Source: a virus. From it: DNA of 24,036 nucleotides. Position numbers and translations under genes: made by a program. Below the pieces are notes generated by a model. The model made no database searches. It worked only from the letters and a program-made list of their open reading frames with translations, and was not told the origin of the DNA. Of this stretch, positions 1-24,036 are shown in pieces. Position 1 is the stretch's first letter. The number at the start of each line of letters is the position of its first letter. The stretch is from positions 1 through 24,036 of IMG/VR virus record IMGVR_UViG_3300048917_000230; one strand, written 5' to 3'.

Positions 1-78
1 CATTAGGCGTATGCTGCTAGGTGATGGCCCGCTTGTTTACGCGGGCGATCCGGCCGCCCGATCCTGAGATCCCGAACG
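1..78. repeat. Left copy of the exact 78-bp terminal direct repeat (identical to 23959..24036)
   Basis: Base-for-base identity read directly. The repeat spans the TerL-portal intergenic region and the first 58 nt of the portal ORF. Confidence 0.95.
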
Positions 79-1280
79 GGAACGACCCGGTGACCGCCGC
101 CCCAGGAACGGTCGGCCCGCCGAACGTCAACCCCGGCGATCCGCACGGGGTCACGGTTGAGGGTGAGGATCTGCCGTGGCAGCCGCCACCGAGGATCGTC
201 CCGTCGGCGTGGTCGGGGTGGCCTGCGGAGTGGCCGACGCCGAACTGGGGCGGACAGATCACGGCGTTGACCGACACGGCCTGGATGTGCATCGACCTCA
301 ACTCGTCGCTGCTCTCGACGATGCCGCCGTACCTCGTCGGCGCCGCCCCGTCTCTCAGCTCGGACTGGCTGAACAACCCGCAGCCCGAGACGTATGCGTC
401 GTGGGAAGAGTTCATGAAGCAGCTCGCGTGGGACTACCAGCTCGGCGAAGCGTTCGTGCTCGCCACATCCCGCTATTCGACCGGAATGCCGTCGCGATTC
501 CACGTGGTGCCGCCGTGGCTCGTGAACGTCGAGATCATGGAGGGCGTCCGCACCTACCGCATCGGCAACAGAGATGTGACCGACGACATGCTGCACATCC
601 GCTACCAGTCCAACGTCAGTGACGCGCACGGCCACGGCCCGCTCGAGGCCGGCCAGGGGAGGCTTGTGGCCGCGCAGGTGCTCTCGCGGTACGCGACGAC
701 GCTTGCGGCCGGCGGAGGGATCCCGTCGTCGGTGCTCGAGCACCCCGACGAGCTCTCCGCGGAGCAGTCCGAGTTGTTGAAGGCGCAGTGGGTGCAGGCC
801 CGGATGTCGTCGATCGGCGAACCCGCCGTCCTCTCCGGCGGCGTCAAATGGACCGCCACCCAGCTCGACCCCGAGAAGATGGCGCTCCTCGACCTCTCAC
901 AGTGGAACGAATCCCGGATCGCGCTCATGCTCGGCGTCCCACCCTTCTTGGTCGGCCTCCCCTCGGGCGGCGACTCGATGACGTACTCGAACGTCACCAG
1001 CCTGTTCTCGTACCACTGGCGGGCCTACCTCCGGCCGCGTGCGCAGACCGTCATGTCGGCGCTGTCCGGGTGGCTGCTCCCCAGAGGCACACGGATCGAG
1101 GTCAACCGCGACGCGTACATCGAGCCCGAGCCGTTGCAGCGGGCGCAGACCGCCCAGATCCTGAACGGCATCGTCGACCCGGTCACCGGCCAGCAGGCGT
1201 TGACGGTCGCCGAGATCCGCGACACGGAACGGATCGACGACTCGACCCCCGAACCCTTGTCGGCAGGAGTGCTGAAATGA
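21..1280 (+). CDS. Portal protein (HK97-family type)
   Basis: A 419-codon ORF directly downstream of TerL across the circular junction and upstream of the protease. Size and position are typical of a portal. Its stop overlaps the protease start (ATGA at 1277-1280). The start is uncertain: GTG 21, ATG 24 or in-frame TTG 33, with AGGTGA at 18-23. Confidence 0.8.
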   Translation: MMARLFTRAIRPPDPEIPNGNDPVTAAPGTVGPPNVNPGDPHGVTVEGEDLPWQPPPRIVPSAWSGWPAEWPTPNWGGQITALTDTAWMCIDLNSSLLSTMPPYLVGAAPSLSSDWLNNPQPETYASWEEFMKQLAWDYQLGEAFVLATSRYSTGMPSRFHVVPPWLVNVEIMEGVRTYRIGNRDVTDDMLHIRYQSNVSDAHGHGPLEAGQGRLVAAQVLSRYATTLAAGGGIPSSVLEHPDELSAEQSELLKAQWVQARMSSIGEPAVLSGGVKWTATQLDPEKMALLDLSQWNESRIALMLGVPPFLVGLPSGGDSMTYSNVTSLFSYHWRAYLRPRAQTVMSALSGWLLPRGTRIEVNRDAYIEPEPLQRAQTAQILNGIVDPVTGQQALTVAEIRDTERIDDSTPEPLSAGVLK

Positions 1281-1861
1281 CCCAGCTCGAGATCGAAATC
1301 CGGAAGGTCGCAGACCAGCAGTTGGAGGTGTCGTTCCCGAAACGACAGATCGAACTCGTGGTGATGCCCTACGAGGTCGAGGCGCAGGTCGTCCACCGCG
1401 GCCGGATGATCCGCGAAATCGTCTCGCGCGGCGCGTTCGAGGGGATCGACGCGACCCGCCGCCGGATCGTCGTGAACCGCGAACATGTCCTCGACAAGGT
1501 CGTCGGGAAAGCGATCCGCTTCTACCCTTCGAGGGAGGAGGGGCTGGTTGCTGAGTTGCGGATCGCGCCGACCGAGCAGGGCGATGAAACGCTGGCGCTG
1601 GCGGATGAGGGTTTGTTGGATGCGTCGGCGGGGTTCGGTGTCCCGGACGGCGGCGAATCGTGGCCGGAACGCGGCCTGCGGCGCCTCTCGCGGCTCTGGT
1701 TGGACCACATCGCGATGACCCACTCGCCGGCCTATCAGGGCACGAACGTGCTCGCCGTCCGCGACAAAGACCCCGCCGTCGCCGTGCCGGCGGCGGCCCG
1801 GCCGAACCTCGAAATCGTCCGGGGCTGGCGTCTAGCCGACCGTTACGCTTTAATCGAATAG
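1277..1861 (+). CDS. Prohead maturation protease, HK97 family (S78/U35 type)
   Basis: Internal ATG of ORF 788..1861, coupled to the portal stop. Motifs IVVNREH (His) and LLDASAGFGV (Ser) fit the HK97 prohead protease layout. It lies between the portal and capsid genes. Confidence 0.85.
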   Translation: MTQLEIEIRKVADQQLEVSFPKRQIELVVMPYEVEAQVVHRGRMIREIVSRGAFEGIDATRRRIVVNREHVLDKVVGKAIRFYPSREEGLVAELRIAPTEQGDETLALADEGLLDASAGFGVPDGGESWPERGLRRLSRLWLDHIAMTHSPAYQGTNVLAVRDKDPAVAVPAAARPNLEIVRGWRLADRYALIE

Positions 1862-18662: not shown

Positions 18663-18724
18663 CGTTGTTGTTGTTCGTGTTCGCGCTGGCCGTTTTGGCG
18701 GTGGTGTGGCGGGCGTTGCGGTGA
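18659..18724 (+). CDS. 21-aa hydrophobic micro-ORF
   Basis: GTGA overlap with the MTase stop. Translation: VTLLLFVFALAVLAVVWRALR. It ends 2 nt before the next ATG. It may be only a coupling ORF. Confidence 0.3.
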   Translation: MTLLLFVFALAVLAVVWRALR

Positions 18725-18726
18725 GC

Positions 18727-19125
18727 ATGGAACGCCAAACCGTCCTGCTCGAGGGCGGCCCGCTCGACGGCGAGCGCAGGTTGGTGCATCCCGACAGCGG
18801 ACGGTATTTCGAGGAGTGGGACGACGGCCCCGCCGAACACTGGCTGCCGCCCGCCCGGAAAGTCAACTGTGCGACCTACCGCCGCGTCGACGCCACCACG
18901 TTCGCGTACGCGGCAACCCAGACAGCGATGGGTTCGCCTAACCCCGATTTCTACAAGGAGGAACCAGAGATGTCCGAGACCGCAACCCCGCAGCCGCCGG
19001 CGCAGCCTGTGCCGCCCGTCCAAGAACCCGAGCCCGCCGAGGAGCCTGACCAGGACGACGACAACGACGCCGAGTCGGTGACCACCACAGAGACGACGAC
19101 GGAAACGACGGAGGTGGAGTTCTGA
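18727..19125 (+). CDS. Hypothetical protein with GGPLDG N-domain and long acidic/Thr-rich tail ending EVEF
   Basis: Internal ATG of ORF 18706..19125. The C-terminus reads PEPAEEPDQDDDNDAESVTTTETTTETTEVEF. It lies immediately upstream of recT. Confidence 0.6.
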   Translation: MERQTVLLEGGPLDGERRLVHPDSGRYFEEWDDGPAEHWLPPARKVNCATYRRVDATTFAYAATQTAMGSPNPDFYKEEPEMSETATPQPPAQPVPPVQEPEPAEEPDQDDDNDAESVTTTETTTETTEVEF

Positions 19126-19819: not shown

Positions 19820-20323
19820 ATGGGTTCCTTCCGCTGGAGAAACTGGGATGAGCTAAACCAATGGCTCGAGCAGAAACAGTGTCAATGGTGCGGCCACATC
19901 GGACTCGACTTCGTCGGGCTCGGGAAACGCCCTAACTTCTCAGCGCTGATCTGCCCGGACCCCGACTGCGGCCGACACAACGGCTGGATGCCGGCACCGT
20001 TCGGCGAGATCCAAGCCTCACCACGAAGACGAGCGATCCGACAGCATCGTCTCGATGAAGACCGCTGCCACATTTGCCTCCGAACCCGAACGCAGGCACA
20101 CGCAGCCGGAACTGACCTCCAGAAACACCATCTGCATGACCGGGCACGTCTCGTCGACAGCGGTGCCGAGCTCGACGACCTCCGCTACCTCTCATGGATC
20201 TGCGGAACGCCCTGCCATTCGATCATCACCGCCTTGCGACATGCCTACGGTCGTGACCTCACCATCGAGATCGAGATCCCCAACGATGACGACGTCGGCG
20301 ACGTCGACCAGGCTGCTAGTTGA
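19820..20323 (+). CDS. HNH endonuclease with N-terminal zinc-ribbon
   Basis: GAGGAG RBS upstream. It has CQWCGH...CPDPDCGRH followed by CHICL...HHLH...CGTPCH (HNH pattern). Confidence 0.65.
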   Translation: MGSFRWRNWDELNQWLEQKQCQWCGHIGLDFVGLGKRPNFSALICPDPDCGRHNGWMPAPFGEIQASPRRRAIRQHRLDEDRCHICLRTRTQAHAAGTDLQKHHLHDRARLVDSGAELDDLRYLSWICGTPCHSIITALRHAYGRDLTIEIEIPNDDDVGDVDQAAS

Positions 20324-20871
20324 TGAGCAACGACTGGATGATCGTCCCGAACTGGGAACGCTTCCAGCACTACGGGCTCGCCCGGCGGCCACTGTGGATC
20401 AAGAACTACATAACGCTGCTGCACAAAGACGACTACCTCGATCTGCCGTTCGCGGCCCGTGGATTACTCCATGGAATCTGGCTCGCTTACGCTGACCGTG
20501 ATGGGCAGCTACGCCGATCAGACCTCGCATCGGCGTTACAGGGACGTGTCATCGACGCGCACCTTGCTTCGCTCAACCATGCGGGTTTGATCCTAAGTTC
20601 TGCTAGCAAGCCTCTACATCTAAGTACTAAAGAAGAAACGCCTCCCGATCTCGGCGTGCCGCCGACGAACATCCGGGTTGTCCACAACCAGAAACGCGAA
20701 CGTCTCCACGACCAACTCCTAGCTGCTGCACGTCGTTACGCAGCTGATTGGCATGGCGGTACGAGCGACGCTTTCGACGCCGGCCTTGACGAGCTCGAGC
20801 ACCTCACCGGTTCACGCCTTGGAGCCGGCGATCGCTACCGCCTCTGGGATCAGGCGTTCCACCATCAGTGA
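20323..20871 (+). CDS. Putative replisome organizer / winged-helix DNA-binding protein
   Basis: The N-terminus WMIVPNWERFQHYGLARRPLWIKNYITLLHKDDYLDLPFAARGLLHGIWLAY resembles phage replisome-organizer N-domains. It contains an internal AT-rich segment. Confidence 0.4.
   Translation: MSNDWMIVPNWERFQHYGLARRPLWIKNYITLLHKDDYLDLPFAARGLLHGIWLAYADRDGQLRRSDLASALQGRVIDAHLASLNHAGLILSSASKPLHLSTKEETPPDLGVPPTNIRVVHNQKRERLHDQLLAAARRYAADWHGGTSDAFDAGLDELEHLTGSRLGAGDRYRLWDQAFHHQ
20586..20640. other. AT-rich island (21 of 55 bases G/C by hand count) inside the organizer-like gene
   Basis: The sequence is TTTGATCCTAAGTTCTGCTAGCAAGCCTCTACATCTAAGTACTAAAGAAGAAACG. CTAAGT occurs twice, at 20593 and 20619. Confidence 0.6.
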
Positions 20872-21056
20872 TGGCGAAGGGAAGTCACGTAACGAGAGGT
20901 GGGTGGGAGCCGAAGACGTGCTCGAGCTGCGGCCAGCCGATCGTCATCACACGCCAGTCCTGCACCAACTACATGGACGACACGACCAACACCGCCTACG
21001 CCTGGCACACAACCTGCTCGAGACCCGTCACACTGAACACGGGAGGTGCCCGATGA
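20871..21056 (+). CDS. Small Cys/His zinc-binding-like protein (61 aa)
   Basis: The ATG overlaps the upstream stop by 1 nt. It has CSSCGQP ... HTTC. Confidence 0.5.
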   Translation: MAKGSHVTRGGWEPKTCSSCGQPIVITRQSCTNYMDDTTNTAYAWHTTCSRPVTLNTGGAR

Positions 21057-21142
21057 ACTACCGCACCGTCACGATCGGCGAAATAGCGTTGGTCATCATC
21101 GCGATCTTCATCGCGCTCGCCTACTTCAACGGCTGGGGCTAG
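21053..21142 (+). CDS. 29-aa single-helix membrane peptide
   Basis: ATGA overlap with the upstream stop. Translation: MNYRTVTIGEIALVIIAIFIALAYFNGWG. Confidence 0.4.
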   Translation: MNYRTVTIGEIALVIIAIFIALAYFNGWG

Positions 21143-21144
21143 AG

Positions 21145-21480
21145 GTGACCATCAACGTCAACCAAACCACCGAGCCCGTGAACCTGACCTGGTATCAGGG
21201 CGACAGCAGCGTCCAGACGTTTCGGTTCCTCACCGCACCCGACCAACCATGGGACCTGTCGCATGTGTTCGTCCGCAGCACAGCCCGCTCCACGTTGGGC
21301 GACAGTGTCGAGCTGACCGTGCACATCGACGACCCCACCACGGGCCTGGTCAGCATCTACCCGCCCCTCGCCGGGCTGCAGCCGGACCTGTACGACTACG
21401 ACGTGCAGTTCAACGACGGCCAACGCACCGCAACCTGGATCCACGGCCGCATCCAAGTCCGAAAGGACGTCACCACATGA
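21145..21480 (+). CDS. Ig-like (BppU_N-like) small structural protein
   Basis: GTG 21145. VNLTWYQGDSSVQTFRFL...WDLSHVFVRSTARS...VELTVHIDDPTTGLVSIY...LYDYDVQFNDGQRTATWIHGRIQVRKDV matches the baseplate-upper-protein N-terminal Ig-like pattern. Confidence 0.55.
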   Translation: MTINVNQTTEPVNLTWYQGDSSVQTFRFLTAPDQPWDLSHVFVRSTARSTLGDSVELTVHIDDPTTGLVSIYPPLAGLQPDLYDYDVQFNDGQRTATWIHGRIQVRKDVTT

Positions 21481-22130
21481 CCATCACCACACAGGGTGGC
21501 CCGCCGCAAATCATCGAAGTCCAGATCCCGTCCGGCCCACCAGGCCCACAAGGACCGGCCGGCCCAGCAGGCGCCCCAGGTGCGAGCTCGCTCACCGACC
21601 TGACCGACGTCACCGGTGCAGGCGGCTACGGCCAATCACCCGTCGACGACGGCTCCTCCACTTTCCCGCTCACACGGGTCACCACACAGGAAGACCTGCA
21701 GGCTGTGCTCGCATCCGTCGCCGCCGTCACATGGCACGACATCGGTGCTGCGGGTGAGCCCGCATTCCAATCAAGCTTCCGCAACATCGGCGACCCATGG
21801 TCACCCGCACGGTTCCGCATCCTCGCCAACAGCACGGTGCGTATGCAGGGCACCGTTACGTGCGACGACCCCACCATCGCCGATGCGAACTGGATCCCCA
21901 TCTTCACCCTCCCACCCGAAGCACGCCCCGACTACAACCTCGAGTTCATGGCGCTCACCAACGACAACGCCATCAGCAAGCTCTACGTCTGGGACGACGG
22001 CACCGTCGTCTGGGCCGGCTACGCCATCGGCACCCACGCCCCGATCACCCGCCTCCCACTCAACTTCCTCTCCTGGTCAACGACAGGGCCAGCGACGATG
22101 CTCGCCGACGCCATGGCTGCGAGGCCGTGA
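21477..22130 (+). CDS. Collagen-like repeat fibre protein with globular C-terminal domain
   Basis: ATGA overlap with the upstream stop. There are six G-X-Y triplets (GPPGPQGPAGPAGAPGAS, nt 21534-21587), followed by a beta-rich C-terminal domain. Confidence 0.7.
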   Translation: MTITTQGGPPQIIEVQIPSGPPGPQGPAGPAGAPGASSLTDLTDVTGAGGYGQSPVDDGSSTFPLTRVTTQEDLQAVLASVAAVTWHDIGAAGEPAFQSSFRNIGDPWSPARFRILANSTVRMQGTVTCDDPTIADANWIPIFTLPPEARPDYNLEFMALTNDNAISKLYVWDDGTVVWAGYAIGTHAPITRLPLNFLSWSTTGPATMLADAMAARP

Positions 22131-22193
22131 GTTTTTTTGTGCGGTGATGACCCGCCCGCCGCTGCAGTCAGATTTTTCCCCGTGTGAGCCGAG
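22131..22193. promoter_or_regulatory. T-tract-containing intergenic region upstream of TerL (candidate cos/pac or late-operon control region)
   Basis: T7 at 22132-22138 and T5 at 22173-22177 stand out in an otherwise GC-rich genome. This is the only gap between the fibre pair and the packaging gene. Confidence 0.4.
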
Positions 22194-23948
22194 ATGACGA
22201 GCTCGACGGCGGCTCGGGGCTATAGCGGGGCGCATCAGCGGATACGGAAAGAGTGGGCGCCGTTGGTGAAGGCGGGCAAGGTTGATTGCGCGAGGTGTGG
22301 CCGGCCGATCGGGGCGTTCGAGCCGTGGGATCTGGGGCATGTCGACGGCAGCCGTGTTCGGTATCAGGGGCCGGAGCATGTGCGGTGTAACCGGGCGACG
22401 TCGTCGCGTCGGCCTGGTGCCAGGTCTCGGCCCCGTCCGGTGCCGCCGGTTGCGCCGCCGGCGCCGGTGTTGGAGCGGCCGGGGTTGTTGGCTTCGGATG
22501 AGCGGTGGCGTGTTCCGTGGTTGCGTGGGTTGCGGAGGGTGCCGAAGGACGCGACGTGGCCGAGGTTGATGACGGTTCCGCACCCTTCTGCGGTGGGGTC
22601 GTTGGGGCCGCAGTTCATCCGGTGGGCTGAGGCACGGGAGGGCAGGCCGTTGCGGTGGTGGCAGCGGCTTGTCGCGACGAGGCTGCTCGAGGTCGACGGC
22701 GACGGGTCGTTGCTGTGGGAGACGATGGTGTTGTCGATGGCCCGCCAGCTCGGGAAGTCGTGGCTGCTCCGCGAGTTGTTGTTGTGGCGGATCCATCAGG
22801 GAGACCGGTTCGGCGAGCCGCAGGACTGTCTCCACACGGGCAAAGACATCGCGGTTTGCAAAGAGATCCAGCGGCCCGCCCGGTTGTGGGCGCGTGCGCA
22901 GCCGGACCTGTACAAGGTGCGTGAGGTCAACGGGCAGGAGTCGATCGAGTACCTCGCCGACGGGTCGAGGTGGATGCTGAAGGCGAAGGGCGCCCCGTAC
23001 GGCTACGGGGTATCGCTTGCCGTCGTCGATGAGGCGTGGAAGGTGAAGCAGGAAGAGGTCGACGACGGGGTGGCGCCGACGCTGGTTGAGCGGCTGCAGA
23101 CGCAGACGCTGCTGGTCTCGACGGCGCACCGGCTCGCGGAAGGGTTGATGGTGAACAGCCGCCGGCTGGCGTTGGAGCAGCTCGAGCAGGGTGACGGTTC
23201 GCTGCTGATCGAATGGTCTGCGCCCGGGGACGCCAAGCTCGACGACGTGAAGACGTGGCGGTTCGCGTCGCCGCACTGGACGCCGAAACGGGAACGGCTG
23301 ATCGGCCAGCAGCTGCAGGCCGCCCAGTCCGGCGAGCTCAGAGACCCGGACGAGCCGGACCCGCTCGAGTCGTTCAAGGCGCAGTGGCTGAACCAGTGGC
23401 CGGCGAAACGGTTCAGCGGCGACCAACTGGTGCCGCCCGGACGGTGGGCACAACTCGTCGAGTCGGGGCTGCAGGAGTTCGGGCCGTTGTGGGTCGCGGT
23501 CGAAGACGCGCACGGCCACGGCGGCGCCGTCGCAGCCGCCGCACGCACCGAAGACGGAAGGATCGAGGTCGACGGGTGGACGTTCCAGGACTGGGACTCC
23601 GCGATCGACGCTGCTCTGCGGTTGGGGGAGCATCGGAAGATCCGGCAGCTACTCGTCGGCGCGTCGATGTTGTCGCGGGTAGCGCCAGGCACGGTCCCGG
23701 CTCCGATGCCCGCCGGAAGCAGGGAGCTGCGGCCGTGCCTGGCACTGCTCCGCGACCTCGCCGCATCCGGCGCCATCGTCCACGACCCCGCGACAGTCGA
23801 GCTCGACGAGGCTGTGGCGCAGGCCCGTGTCAGGGAGACGTCGTCGGGGTTGCAGTTGACGCTGCAAGAGAAGTCCCACCTCGTACGGGCGCTCGTCTGG
23901 GCGGTCGGCGCGGCGCACAAACCGGCGCCGATGCCGGTGATTCAGTAG
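22194..23948 (+). CDS. terL: Large terminase subunit with in-frame N-terminal HNH endonuclease domain
   Basis: Residues 8-68 read RGYSGAHQRIRKEWAPLVKAGKVDCARCGRPIGAFEPWDLGHVDGSRVRYQGPEHVRCNRA (HNH). An Arg/Pro linker follows. The TerL part has Walker A ARQLGKSW and Walker B-like SLAVVDEAW. The stop is 10 nt before the circular junction repeat. Confidence 0.85.
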   Translation: MTSSTAARGYSGAHQRIRKEWAPLVKAGKVDCARCGRPIGAFEPWDLGHVDGSRVRYQGPEHVRCNRATSSRRPGARSRPRPVPPVAPPAPVLERPGLLASDERWRVPWLRGLRRVPKDATWPRLMTVPHPSAVGSLGPQFIRWAEAREGRPLRWWQRLVATRLLEVDGDGSLLWETMVLSMARQLGKSWLLRELLLWRIHQGDRFGEPQDCLHTGKDIAVCKEIQRPARLWARAQPDLYKVREVNGQESIEYLADGSRWMLKAKGAPYGYGVSLAVVDEAWKVKQEEVDDGVAPTLVERLQTQTLLVSTAHRLAEGLMVNSRRLALEQLEQGDGSLLIEWSAPGDAKLDDVKTWRFASPHWTPKRERLIGQQLQAAQSGELRDPDEPDPLESFKAQWLNQWPAKRFSGDQLVPPGRWAQLVESGLQEFGPLWVAVEDAHGHGGAVAAAARTEDGRIEVDGWTFQDWDSAIDAALRLGEHRKIRQLLVGASMLSRVAPGTVPAPMPAGSRELRPCLALLRDLAASGAIVHDPATVELDEAVAQARVRETSSGLQLTLQEKSHLVRALVWAVGAAHKPAPMPVIQ

Positions 23949-23958
23949 CGCCGACTTG

Positions 23959-24036
23959 CATTAGGCGTATGCTGCTAGGTGATGGCCCGCTTGTTTACGC
24001 GGGCGATCCGGCCGCCCGATCCTGAGATCCCGAACG
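23959..24036. repeat. Right copy of the exact 78-bp terminal direct repeat (identical to 1..78)
   Basis: Base-for-base identity read directly. It contains a truncated duplicate of the portal 5' end. Confidence 0.95.

Follow-up and report, generated by a model that had tools for sequence, protein, structure and literature searches.

Does a single open reading frame of an uncultured virus encode an HNH endonuclease joined to a large terminase (TerL), and could such an enzyme serve a phage that has no recognizable small terminase (TerS)? The HK97 packaging system, reportedly described by Kala et al. in 2014, comprises the HNH protein gp74, the TerS gp1 and the TerL gp2. How HNH proteins contribute to cos packaging in mechanistic terms is still unclear, and the assignment of the HK97 strands to enzymes is unsettled. 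A preliminary description of the DNA considered here had proposed that one 584-codon ORF combines an N-terminal HNH domain, an Arg/Pro linker and a complete TerL, with nothing resembling TerS nearby, and had called this architecture unusual.

The window, which is the whole stretch of 24,036 nucleotides that was analyzed, is a circular assembly with a 78-bp terminal overlap that closes to a circle of ~23,958 bp. It is best explained as a complete genome, that of a small temperate siphovirus with a cos site, recovered from a soil-type metagenome. Its host is probably an actinobacterium; the sole match among GTDB genomes was a 2.5-kb contig in an Acidimicrobiales MAG. On the circle the portal gene lies directly downstream of the HNH-TerL gene (Table 1), and the TerL-portal order also occurs in relatives. 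The "fibre" gene upstream probably starts at 21477 (217 aa, collagen-like) rather than at 21249. Elsewhere in the window, the idea of a fused protease/scaffold-MCP gene with a missing protease was dropped upon finding an S78 protease homologue at ~1277-1861 in another frame.

Table 1. Coordinates of the HNH-TerL gene, its parts and the flanking features, numbered along the window.
Feature	Position (nt)	Strand	Residues	Remarks
Portal gene	21..1280	+		phrog_12, E=1e-42; directly downstream of HNH-TerL on the circle
Terminator-like hairpin and T-run	22112..22139	+		closes the preceding tail-fibre-like gene, directly before the predicted cos
Predicted cos nicking site, GAC-N15-GTC	22149..22169	.		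inverted half-sites: GAC 22149-51, spacer 22152-66, GTC 22167-69
Predicted 15-nt 3' cohesive overhang	22152..22166	+		CCGCCCGCCGCTGCA; from the GAC/GTC spacer rule
Predicted left end of virion DNA	22167..22182	+		GTCAGATTTTTCCCCG; GTC, T-run, C-run; candidate terminase recognition element
HNH-TerL fusion ORF	22194..23948	+	584 aa	ATG start; first gene after the predicted cos
HNH (beta-beta-alpha-Me) endonuclease domain	22194..22400	+	1-69	HNH core ~8-68
HNH residue roles				zinc ligands C32, C35, H62, C65; catalytic H49; metal-binding N66
Flexible Arg/Pro-rich tether	22401..22472	+	70-93	
Conserved TerL N-terminal extension	22473..22598	+	94-135	ERxGL..RWRVPWL..WPRLMTVPH
TerL ATPase domain	22599..23465	+	~136-424	
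Walker A	22740-22763	+	183-190	ARQLGKSW
Walker B	23016-23039	+	275-282	LAVVDEAW
TerL RNase H-like nuclease domain	23466..23945	+	~425-584	Foldseek, MAFFT and model secondary structure

The three-part layout held up in its coordinates, domains and motifs. An in-frame TGA at 22185-22187 sits just 5' of the ATG, so that ATG 22194 is the only start that takes in the N-terminal helix. The AlphaFold model of the protein has a mean pLDDT of 89.4. The Arg/Pro segment was predicted to be disordered, with pLDDT below 50 for residues 71-86, and the extension that follows it (residues 94-135) is modeled at pLDDT 96-98 and is highly conserved among homologues.

Residues ~8-68 had been likened to the small HNH endonucleases that lie beside terminase genes, and several lines of evidence agree with this. 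The PHROGs profile phrog_1808 ("HNH endonuclease") matches residues 3-73 (E=1e-11), the domain is 50-58% identical to the stand-alone HNH proteins encoded by the last genes of the cos actinophages Charlie, Shoya, Brujita and Eyre, and its best solved relative is the prophage HNH protein of PDB entry 4H9D (E=5e-5), in which the positions of the motifs line up. These motifs are C32-x2-C35, D46-L-G-H49 and H62-x2-C65-N66. C32, H49 and N66 do not vary across 63 homologues, in which C35 and H62 reach a conservation of 90% or more. The homologues carry two HNH subtypes, A and B, which alternate on closely related TerLs and align as one family; in both, C32, C35, H49, P60 and C65 are invariant and N66 is at least 90% conserved, while the position of H62 is a Cys in subtype B, for which there was no match among cultured phages. 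The model is confident here as well (pLDDT 85-92 for residues 11-60 and 82 for 61-70). With the class of HK97 gp74 and phrog_1808 the domain shares the catalytic-His motif, the zinc site and a position adjoining the predicted cos and the terminase; it departs from the free-standing ~100-130 aa form of that class in being joined to TerL. We place it in the cos-adjacent, terminase-associated HNH class; by analogy with its relatives (PMC3592412, PMC9410871) it would presumably nick DNA and stimulate cos cleavage.

The remainder of the ORF is a TerL, as proposed from its Walker A and Walker B-like motifs. The PHROGs profile phrog_9 ("terminase large subunit") matches residues 121-473 (E=1e-31), and the best fold match in the PDB is HK97 TerL (6Z6D; Foldseek E=2.7e-19), followed by the Sf6, D6E and T4 TerLs and the nuclease domains of P22, G20c and Sf6. 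K188 of Walker A and D279/E280 of Walker B are the aligned counterparts of HK97 K60 and D153/E154, and all 39 sequences compared retain them. Other searches returned less. The Pfam models TerL_ATPase and Terminase_6N stayed below cut-off whether the whole protein or its halves were searched (E=0.18-0.29), NCBIfam gave no match to the fusion protein, and the full-length profile found no matching sequence in the PDB. When the family profile was aligned by hhalign to the single HK97 TerL and gp74 sequences the probabilities were below 3%, and this comparison was used solely to confirm the Walker B register. Current curated models do not reach a TerL family as divergent as this one; Pfam and NCBIfam miss an abundant clade of soil-phage TerLs, which is consequently annotated as hypothetical.

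The nuclease site of this TerL looks non-canonical. In an alignment of ~14% identity, whose mapping agrees with the strands and helices of the predicted model, the HK97 triad D302, D388 and D471 corresponds to E437(D438), G489 and H562, and the middle Asp appears to be missing. Among 39 aligned family sequences, position 489 is Gly in 37, and position 562 is His in 25 and Asp in 11; these 11 include the more distant representatives shown, with a single exception. An active metal site might nevertheless be built from E437, D438 and H562.

Residues 94-135 were considered as a possible remnant of TerS. This was rejected: the segment has little helix, lies against the ATPase domain in the predicted structure and is present in L083, the single related locus without an HNH domain. 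Because the extension is kept in this sole HNH-less relative, it belongs to TerL.

How common the joined form is bears directly on whether it is real. Homologues numbered 728, of which the best 120 are nearly all full length at 56-72% identity, and 453 cluster representatives came up in a deep search at E<=1e-30; diverse N-terminal HNH subtypes are carried by many of them. Among the 79 related metagenomic loci that extend far enough upstream of TerL, HNH is in frame with TerL in 78, and in none are the two split. "Short" TerL-only homologues (P0076, P0120 and others) that might have passed for split forms proved to be gene-calling artifacts with the HNH open in frame upstream. The stretch between the HNH CN motif and RWRVPW measures 26 to 40 aa in 65 distinct homologues; its sequence varies, and the frame is always kept. 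The fusion is therefore widespread in metagenomes, among hundreds of uncultured relatives. The architecture is already present, unannotated, in UniProt/BFVD. Among cultured phages it was found in 0 of 50,697 records, megablast against cultured phages gave no match, and we found no published description of an HNH-terminase fusion in the literature searched. The term "unusual" thus fits cultured phages and does not fit metagenomes.

Such recurrence decides against an indel that merged two genes during sequencing or assembly. The window is a metagenomic assembly and its linker region combines high G+C with low sequence complexity, the kind of setting in which this error might be suspected. Nevertheless, the same in-frame layout recurs in 67 different N-terminal sequences, which stem from numerous independent samples and assemblers (JGI, ENA, Logan and NCBI). 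With 78 of 79 loci in frame, through a tether that always keeps the frame, an indel artifact is ruled out, and we give this explanation virtually no weight. The ORF is confirmed as a genuine HNH domain, disordered linker and complete HK97-like TerL rather than an artifact.

A gene that is fused need not yield only a fused protein. Translation might also begin internally, near Met126, or the linker might be cut by a protease; either would yield free TerL alongside free or fused HNH, and the working enzyme would then resemble a classical two-protein system. Met126 lies at nt 22569, as the preliminary description gave it, and is invariant; in the window a GAGG stands just 5' of its ATG, and the linker is exposed and disordered. 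The GAGG, on the other hand, is not conserved among homologues, and for this reason an internal ribosome-binding site before Met126 was rejected: the R124 codon is CGG in 41, AGG in 15 and another codon in 20 sequences, which is the general Arg usage of the ORF. Residues 94-125 are strongly conserved as protein and confidently folded, and even the HNH-less L083 encodes the extension 5' of its WPRLM motif. The proposed internal start thus lacks sequence support, and two products from this gene appear improbable. That nearly every locus preserves the frame even though the tether varies in length speaks against them too, and for the same reason supports the view that the covalent link is maintained by selection.

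The HNH domain might also be a selfish homing-endonuclease module lodged at the 5' end of terL with no part in packaging. HNH homing endonucleases often lie beside or inside terminase genes (PMC10448857), and the alternation of HNH subtypes on close TerLs could suggest mobility. Against this, the domain is orthologous to the cos-adjacent HNH class and not to homing families, its presence in all but one of the 79 loci differs from the sporadic occurrence of a mobile element, its catalytic residues are invariant, intein or intron features are absent, and subtypes A and B form one family. We regard a homing module as very improbable, and a packaging enzyme with its nuclease attached remains our preferred reading.

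The 63 bp between the stop of the upstream gene (22130) and the ATG contain no ORF, in keeping with the earlier statement that nothing TerS-like lies there, and hold a terminator-like hairpin and a predicted cos. We predict that cos lies at GAC-N15-GTC, homologous to the sites of Charlie, Eyre and HK97, with fixed termini for which contig ends give indirect evidence. Of 75 contigs, 35 end within 150 bp upstream of the fusion gene, and about two dozen independent contigs start exactly at GTC. The GTC/T-run/C-run pattern was found at 18 of 80 related contig ends against a background of 0.8% (P=5e-21), and CTCTCTC-type variants also occur at some. In a contig of 25,081 bp the fusion gene is 27 bp from the end; at the right end of this contig the overhang was not directly readable. 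The left end of Charlie is GTCAAACATCCCTCCC, and the GAC-spacer-GTC layout of the junction is common to the window, Charlie, Shoya, Brujita, Eyre and HK97, with half-sites whose spacing in relatives ranges from 7 to 18 nt. For cluster N phages (PMC6544188) and for Eyre (PMC5255912), the 3' overhang given in the literature equals the GAC/GTC spacer, and on this basis a 15-nt 3' overhang is predicted here. Compared with the cultured relatives, cos has moved and lies directly upstream of the fused gene.

The sequence just 5' of the predicted cos deserves separate comment. Terminator-like sites in the search numbered 1, with 0.2 expected, and the same G+C hairpin with a T6-8 run lies at the equivalent position in relatives whose sequences read through the junction. 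This hairpin, together with the mere 24 nt that separate cos from the ATG, counts against our best explanation as far as transcription of the gene is concerned.

The claim that TerS is missing was pursued in several ways, and profile, similarity, synteny and family-core analyses all came back without a match. Profiles from PHROGs, Pfam and NCBIfam, the small ORFs included, identified no TerS in the window; the cognate TerS proteins of Charlie (gp1), Shoya and HK97 (gp1), used as tblastn queries against the window and 590 kb of relatives, gave a best E of 0.39; and across 22 large related loci that have this cos/TerL module in common, none of the small ORFs is conserved. The 24 nt between the predicted cos and terL leave no coding space for TerS, and the HNH coding sequence occupies the slot that TerS holds in cultured relatives (HNH / cos / TerS / TerL). 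The packaging module thus has no detectable TerS, and packaging may be independent of one. It is nonetheless possible, if on balance doubtful, that a TerS function has escaped recognition and that a divergent or non-homologous small DNA-binding protein encoded elsewhere, or a host factor, recruits HNH-TerL to cos; the enzyme would then not be self-sufficient. TerS families are very divergent (PMC9611059), in every cultured relative a small gene stands between cos and TerL (gp1 in Charlie, Brujita and Eyre, TerS in Shoya), and the window contains several small ORFs without an assigned role, such as 18706-19125 and 20320-20871. Each of the searches above, and the narrow slot between cos and TerL, weighs on the other side.

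The account that we consider likely is that of a single-chain packaging enzyme, in which an HNH nickase domain of the HK97 gp74 type is connected by a ~25-residue tether to a complete HK97-type TerL, encoded by the first gene after cos. On concatemeric or circularized DNA, this enzyme would recognize GAC-N15-GTC together with the conserved T-run and C-run to its right. Each strand would be nicked 5' of GTC to leave a 15-nt 3' overhang, and the TerL ATPase would then move DNA into the prohead from the left end, beginning with the terminase gene itself. The tethered HNH domain would make one, or perhaps both, of these nicks. Characterized terminase-adjacent HNH proteins are strand-specific nickases that cut 5' of GT, for example at CG|GT and SG|GT (PMC3592412). 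Both deduced nick positions fit this N|GT specificity, and the RNase H-like site of TerL seems to lack its middle Asp; these two points are why we infer that HNH nicks at least one strand, although which domain would cut which strand is a matter of conjecture. Rather unlikely, in our estimate, is a further reading in which HNH-TerL is self-sufficient and TerS-independent, the HNH domain makes both staggered nicks, the RNase H-like domain is no longer a working nuclease and is only structural, and cos recognition resides in one polypeptide. If true, this would be a division of labor unlike that of every characterized tailed-phage terminase.

The natural and widespread occurrence of the fusion is "Rosetta-stone" evidence that HNH and TerL act as one machine at the same DNA site, and structural or single-molecule studies could use it as a system contained in one polypeptide. 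With no TerS detected and a TerL site that looks non-canonical, two questions become directly testable: whether TerS is dispensable for site-specific recognition of cos, and whether HNH is the true cos nickase. The cos rule, in which nicks 5' of GTC within an inverted GAC...GTC leave the spacer as a 3' overhang, may also allow the termini of uncultured cos phages to be predicted from sequence.

Among known sequences, comparable in overall design are three proteins from uncultured Caudovirales in UniProt/BFVD, A0A6J5RK67 and A0A6J5QUV0 ("HNHc domain containing protein") and A0A6J5T5X6 ("Terminase large subunit"). They are full-length structural matches of 578-602 aa, which implies the same single-chain HNH and TerL architecture; they are 20-23% identical, were named automatically, and no description of them was found in the literature searched. 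The closest relatives of the HNH sequence are in the cluster N mycobacteriophages (Charlie), Arthrobacter phage Shoya, Mycobacterium phage Brujita and Gordonia phage Eyre, which are likewise actinobacterial siphoviruses of high G+C. Their gene order is HNH (last gene) | cos | small TerS-sized gene | TerL | portal, their TerLs are ~22-26% identical to that of the window over partial aligned regions, and their genomes measure 38-47 kb compared with 24 kb here. At cos, Charlie reads ACTGAC|CCCGCCGCAATGG|GTCAAAC where the window reads GATGAC|CCGCCCGCCGCTGCA|GTCAGAT.

N.phiGamma and the Geobacter Gmet HNH protein of 4H9D (Xu & Gupta 2013, PMC3592412) have the same HNH subclass and zinc site, but are free-standing proteins of ~110-130 aa whose role at cos was not shown in that study. 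In staphylococcal cos phages, SaPIbov5 and the lactococcal Skunavirus (HrdP), an HNH protein encoded beside terS/terL is required for cos-type packaging or its completion (PMC5052747, PMC12967558). There the HNH protein is separate and TerS is present and essential, and in Skunavirus a stable HNH-TerL complex was not captured and the proteins did not co-elute (PMC12967558), whereas here HNH and TerL are covalently joined.

In HK97, gp74 stimulates cos cleavage and is reported as needed for it (PMC13595911, PMC9410871). As in HK97, an HNH nuclease would here cooperate with an HK97-fold TerL at a cos with 3' overhangs; the cos junction has the form TGAC-spacer-GT(C/T), and on the circular map the HNH gene adjoins cos and the terminase. 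The HK97 HNH is a separate protein of 119 aa encoded across cos, with the TerS gene between cos and terL and a canonical D302/D388/D471 triad in TerL. By comparison, the HNH domain in the window is joined to TerL downstream of cos, no TerS was found there, and the triad positions appear altered. We conclude that HNH-TerL is a variant of the HNH-assisted cos terminase that is new to the literature searched, and that the phage encoding it presents a well-studied packaging system in a minimal, naturally occurring form.

A single 584-aa ORF on the plus strand encodes the HNH-TerL fusion, its coordinates (22194-23948) and length being exactly those of the preliminary description. An in-frame TGA at 22185-22187 lies just 5' of the ATG at 22194, which is therefore the sole start able to include the conserved N-terminal helix. 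In PHROGs, residues 3-73 match phrog_1808 'HNH endonuclease' (E=1e-11) and residues 121-473 match phrog_9 'terminase large subunit' (E=1e-31), which bears out the two-domain assignment first made from sequence. Pfam and NCBIfam scores for the fusion protein fall below threshold, and public sources consequently label these proteins 'hypothetical'. An AlphaFold2 model computed from an alignment of 63 sequences (mean pLDDT 89.4) has a folded N-terminal domain at about residues 10-68, a disordered segment at 71-86 (pLDDT <50), and a well-folded body from about residue 95 on. Among solved structures the HK97 large terminase (6Z6D) was the best match by a wide margin (E=2.7e-19), followed by the TerLs of Sf6, D6E and T4 and by isolated TerL nuclease domains.

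The fusion is a property of a family. Among 5.8 billion proteins searched, 728 homologues were found. Of the top 120, almost all are full length (550-600 aa, 56-72% identical); they derive from assemblies of JGI, ENA, Logan and NCBI, with the longest contigs clustering at 20-28 kb. A few 'short' homologues that might pass for unfused TerLs are gene-calling artefacts, the HNH being open in frame 5' of the called start. Of 85 related loci, 79 reach far enough in the 5' direction; in 78 of these the HNH motif is in frame with TerL, and none of the 79 has an intervening stop. The tether, from the HNH 'CN' motif to the RWRVPWL motif, spans 26-40 residues in 65 distinct sequences, always in frame and with little sequence conservation; such a pattern is the mark of a selected, flexible element and not of an indel accident. 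An artefactual indel merging two genes thus has a negligible chance of explaining a fusion conserved family-wide. In L083, the only locus without an HNH, a T/C-rich leader close to the end of the contig precedes TerL (L083:1-330), which retains the conserved N-terminal extension (..PPDATWPRLMTGPH); this locus may represent a natural unfused state and so help to date the fusion.

When 1.84 billion cluster representatives were searched exhaustively with an HMM, 453 proteins scored E<=1e-30 and 2,272 scored E<=1e-10; many of these more distant TerLs have an N-terminal extension that includes an HNH domain, and several HNH subtypes are represented. BFVD holds full-length matches (578-602 aa) from uncultured Caudovirales, auto-named in UniProt 'HNHc domain containing protein' or 'Terminase large subunit'. 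No match spanning at least 80% of the fusion protein occurs in 50,697 cultured-phage records, and the single match among 185,579 GTDB species genomes is a 2.5-kb contig in an Acidimicrobiales MAG bin (L089, DATFRN010000104.1; 41% identity), which starts about 120 bp 5' of the gene. Genome assemblies seem to hold almost no members of the family, although it is common among the retrieved related metagenome contigs.

The two domains might nonetheless act as separate products, through internal initiation at Met126 or through proteolysis. The internal start raised in the preliminary description found no support, as relatives do not conserve the GAGG that the window has 5' of Met126 (R124 is encoded by CGG in 41 sequences, by AGG in 15 and by other codons in 20) and residues 94-125 are strongly conserved and confidently folded. 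We regard separate products as improbable.

Stand-alone HNH endonucleases of Mycobacterium (clusters N and I), Arthrobacter and Gordonia phages share 50-58% identity with residues 3-76; in nearly all those records the HNH gene comes last, with a few hundred bp between it and the right genome end. HK97 gp74 has the same arrangement, and a gp74-type HNH gene adjoins the terminase genes once the cos ends join (PMC13595911; Cluster AZ preprint). Two HNH subtypes occur on closely related TerLs, about 55-65% identical. Type A (window, L001, L004) reads CxxC...WDLGH...GPEHxxCN, with an H..C zinc half-site; type B (L003, L025, L029, L033 and others) reads CxHC...LDHDPPL...CCRLIPSCxxCN, with four Cys and a DHDPPL insert. 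A third variant, within type A, carries an insertion (GPEHRxxxDCxxGGN; L009, L031, L032). This alternation suggests domain exchange or rapid N-terminal divergence. Types A and B align as one family in which C32, C35, H49, P60 and C65 are invariant, N66 nearly so, and H62 of type A aligns with a Cys of type B; the conserved residues correspond to the zinc site, catalytic His and metal-binding Asn of a beta-beta-alpha-Me nuclease. The best solved relative of the HNH-domain profile is the Geobacter prophage HNH 4H9D (E=5e-5), with Cas9 HNH and T4 endonuclease VII next at marginal E-values, and Pfam HNH (PF01844) was matched by 2 of 23 alignment members (best E=3.3e-5). Homologues labelled 'terminase small subunit' (Eyre, NC_031122.1, gene 73) and 'polynucleotide kinase' (Faith5x5, MN585966.1, gene 71) are probably mis-annotated terminase-associated HNHs. 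That the domain is a selfish homing module is very unlikely, being contradicted both by its orthology to the cos-adjacent HNH class and by its near-universal presence.

An exact 78-bp direct terminal repeat indicates that the assembly closes into a circle of about 23,958 bp, such that the window ends are assembly artefacts and not physical ends. By its gene map, this is a small temperate siphovirus.

Features of the window
Feature	Coordinates	Strand	Remarks
Direct terminal repeat	1-78 and 23959-24036		exact, 78 bp
Portal	21-1280		
S78 head-maturation protease homologue	~1277-1861	+	other frame; overlaps portal ORF end and start of long 'MCP' ORF
Major capsid protein (MCP)	start near 1.9-2.0 kb		probable start, not 1660
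Adaptor, tail terminator, major tail protein, tape measure, distal tail proteins			
Fibre-like protein			
Repressor		-	
Integrase			
Lysin-like protein, DNA methyltransferase, RecT, replication-like protein			
Cys-rich ORF	19820-20323	+	167 aa; replication/recombination module
Tail-fibre-like gene	21046-21480	+	phrog_1084/BppU_N-like
Tail-fibre-like gene	21477-22130	+	collagen-like; just 5' of HNH-TerL
Terminator-like hairpin and T-run	22112-22139		
cos (predicted)	22149-22169		
HNH-TerL	22194-23948	+	

The two tail-fibre-like genes at the extreme right end (21046-22130), far from the main tail module, are also present in the related loci L007 and L021 and look like a mobile fibre cassette inserted beside cos. 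In three other loci (L009, L011, L013) the last gene before cos encodes a small membrane protein, with a window counterpart, MNYRTVTIGEIALVIIAIFIALAYFNGWG, at ~21053-21142. The Cys-rich ORF has the motifs CQWCGH..CPDPDCGRH and then CHIC..LQKHHLHD..ICGTPCH; it had no significant match in PHROGs, Pfam or NCBIfam, and by its motifs looks like a second HNH-type nuclease after a zinc ribbon.

Contig ends locate a candidate cos. In 35 of the 75 related contigs with an upstream contig end, that end lies within 150 bp of the projected start codon. The common contig-start motif is (G/C)TC, a few bases, a T-run and a C-run (e.g., GTCAGATTTTCCCCCC and GTCCGATTTCCCCCC); its strict form occurs in 18 of 80 contig ends (per-position background 0.8%; binomial P=5e-21), further contigs start with CTCTCTC-type variants, and window 22167-22182 is GTCAGATTTTTCCCCG. 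In one related contig of 25,081 bp, apparently a complete linear genome, 27 bp separate the fused gene from one of the ends. Once joined, the experimentally defined ends of cultured relatives match the architecture of the window's cos region.

Joined genome ends of cultured phages and the window junction
Genome (loci)	Left flank	Spacer	Right flank
Charlie (L085/L084)	ACTGAC	CCCGCCGCAATGG	GTCAAAC
Shoya (L093/L086)	CCTGAC	TCCGCCCGGTA	GTCATTT
Brujita (L095/L094)	CCTGAC	CCCACCCCTCA	GTCAGGA
Eyre (L097/L096)	GGCGAC	CCCTGCGCTGA	GTCGCCG
HK97 (L092/L091)	AATGAC	CGCCGCCAAA	GTTTGAA
Window	GATGAC	CCGCCCGCCGCTGCA	GTCAGAT

For cluster N phages and for Eyre, the GAC/GTC spacer is identical to the published 3' overhang (13 bases, CCCGCCGCAATGG, PMC6544188, and CCCTGCGCTGA, PMC5255912, respectively). 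GTC is the reverse complement of GAC, so the nick falls directly 5' of GTC on either strand, leaving the spacer as the 3' overhang. We accordingly predict a window cos with a 15-nt 3' overhang, CCGCCCGCCGCTGCA; spacers in relatives measure 7-18 nt. Contig starts at GTC in metagenomes are what one would expect after removal of 3' overhangs during library preparation. The same rule crosses families in the five cultured genomes, the junctions being given as TGAC(C/T)C-spacer-GT(C/T), and we found no statement in the literature searched of an inverted GAC...GTC pair nicked 5' of GTC. The terminator-like hairpin closes the upstream gene just before cos, the start codon lies 24 nt from the cos GTC, and window 22131-22193 contains no sigma-70-like promoter; transcription of the packaging operon might rely on read-through or antitermination where the cos ends join, or on a non-canonical promoter.

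Cultured relatives have the order HNH, cos, small TerS-sized gene, TerL, portal (Charlie: gp68, cos, gp1, gp2; Shoya: gp67, cos, TerS, TerL; likewise Brujita, Eyre and HK97), whereas the window and its family have a variable gene, terminator, cos, HNH-tether-TerL and portal. The HNH coding sequence thus fills the relatives' TerS slot, with cos upstream of the HNH and not downstream. As the preliminary description had it, no TerS was recognisable by any test run: PHROGs (30 ORFs), Pfam and NCBIfam (unassigned small ORFs), PDB sequence search (two TerS-sized unknowns), and tblastn, in which the small cognate proteins that Charlie, Shoya and HK97 encode reached at best E=0.39 across the window and some 590 kb of related loci. 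Across 22 large related loci the family is highly mosaic, conserving only HNH-TerL, portal, MCP and (mostly) adaptor, and no small non-structural window ORF travels with the cos/TerL module. Coding space is scant, with 24 nt from cos to the ATG and about 30 nt from TerL to the portal gene. The absence of TerS is negative evidence, and we infer TerS-independence; the main alternative, recognition by a non-homologous TerS or a host-encoded factor, is possible but on balance doubtful.

The Walker motifs are canonical in 39 of 39 sequences, with K188 equivalent to HK97 K60 and D279/E280 to D153/E154. For the nuclease, we aligned the family with the HK97, Charlie, Shoya, Brujita and Eyre TerLs and checked the result against the model's secondary structure (beta1 432-438, beta4 483-489, last helix from 561). 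In this alignment of about 14% identity, the HK97 triad D302/D388/D471 (PMC9410871) falls on E437 (D438 adjacent), G489 (Gly in 37 of 39) and H562 (His in 25, Asp in 11, Asp predominating in more distant fused relatives), which is suggestive of a family-wide absence of the mid-site nuclease Asp. The D302 column (beta1 catalytic Asp) is Tyr or Ala in the Charlie, Eyre and Brujita TerLs, which work with stand-alone HNHs and have an Asp at, or one residue before, the D388 column (beta4 end); the columns may be misaligned here, or non-canonical nuclease sites may be common among the TerLs of HNH-dependent systems. Characterised terminase-adjacent HNHs are strand-specific nickases that cut 5' of GT (CG/GT, SG/GT, YG/GTY; PMC3592412), and both deduced cos nicks fit this form (window: GCA/GTC on the top strand, CGG/GTC on the bottom).

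A single-chain cos terminase is the best-supported reading of these data. The tethered HNH would make one or possibly both staggered cos nicks, after which the TerL ATPase would package DNA from the left end; we infer the strand assignment and the overhang. The fusion provides Rosetta-stone evidence for an HNH-TerL machine and a simple system in which the nuclease that cuts cos could be identified, and it opens TerS-independent cos recognition to testing. HNH-assisted cos cleavage is already known from HK97, staphylococcal cos phages and SaPIs, and Skunavirus (PMC9410871; PMC5052747; PMC12967558). We found no description of an HNH-TerL fusion in the literature searched; the architecture is already present, unannotated, in UniProt and BFVD and is abundant in metagenomes. 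With known systems it shares the HK97-type TerL fold, the gp74-type HNH, and a GAC-N-GTC cos with a (predicted) 3' overhang; it differs from them in the covalent fusion, in a cos moved 5' of the HNH, in lacking any detectable TerS, and in a TerL nuclease site that appears non-canonical.
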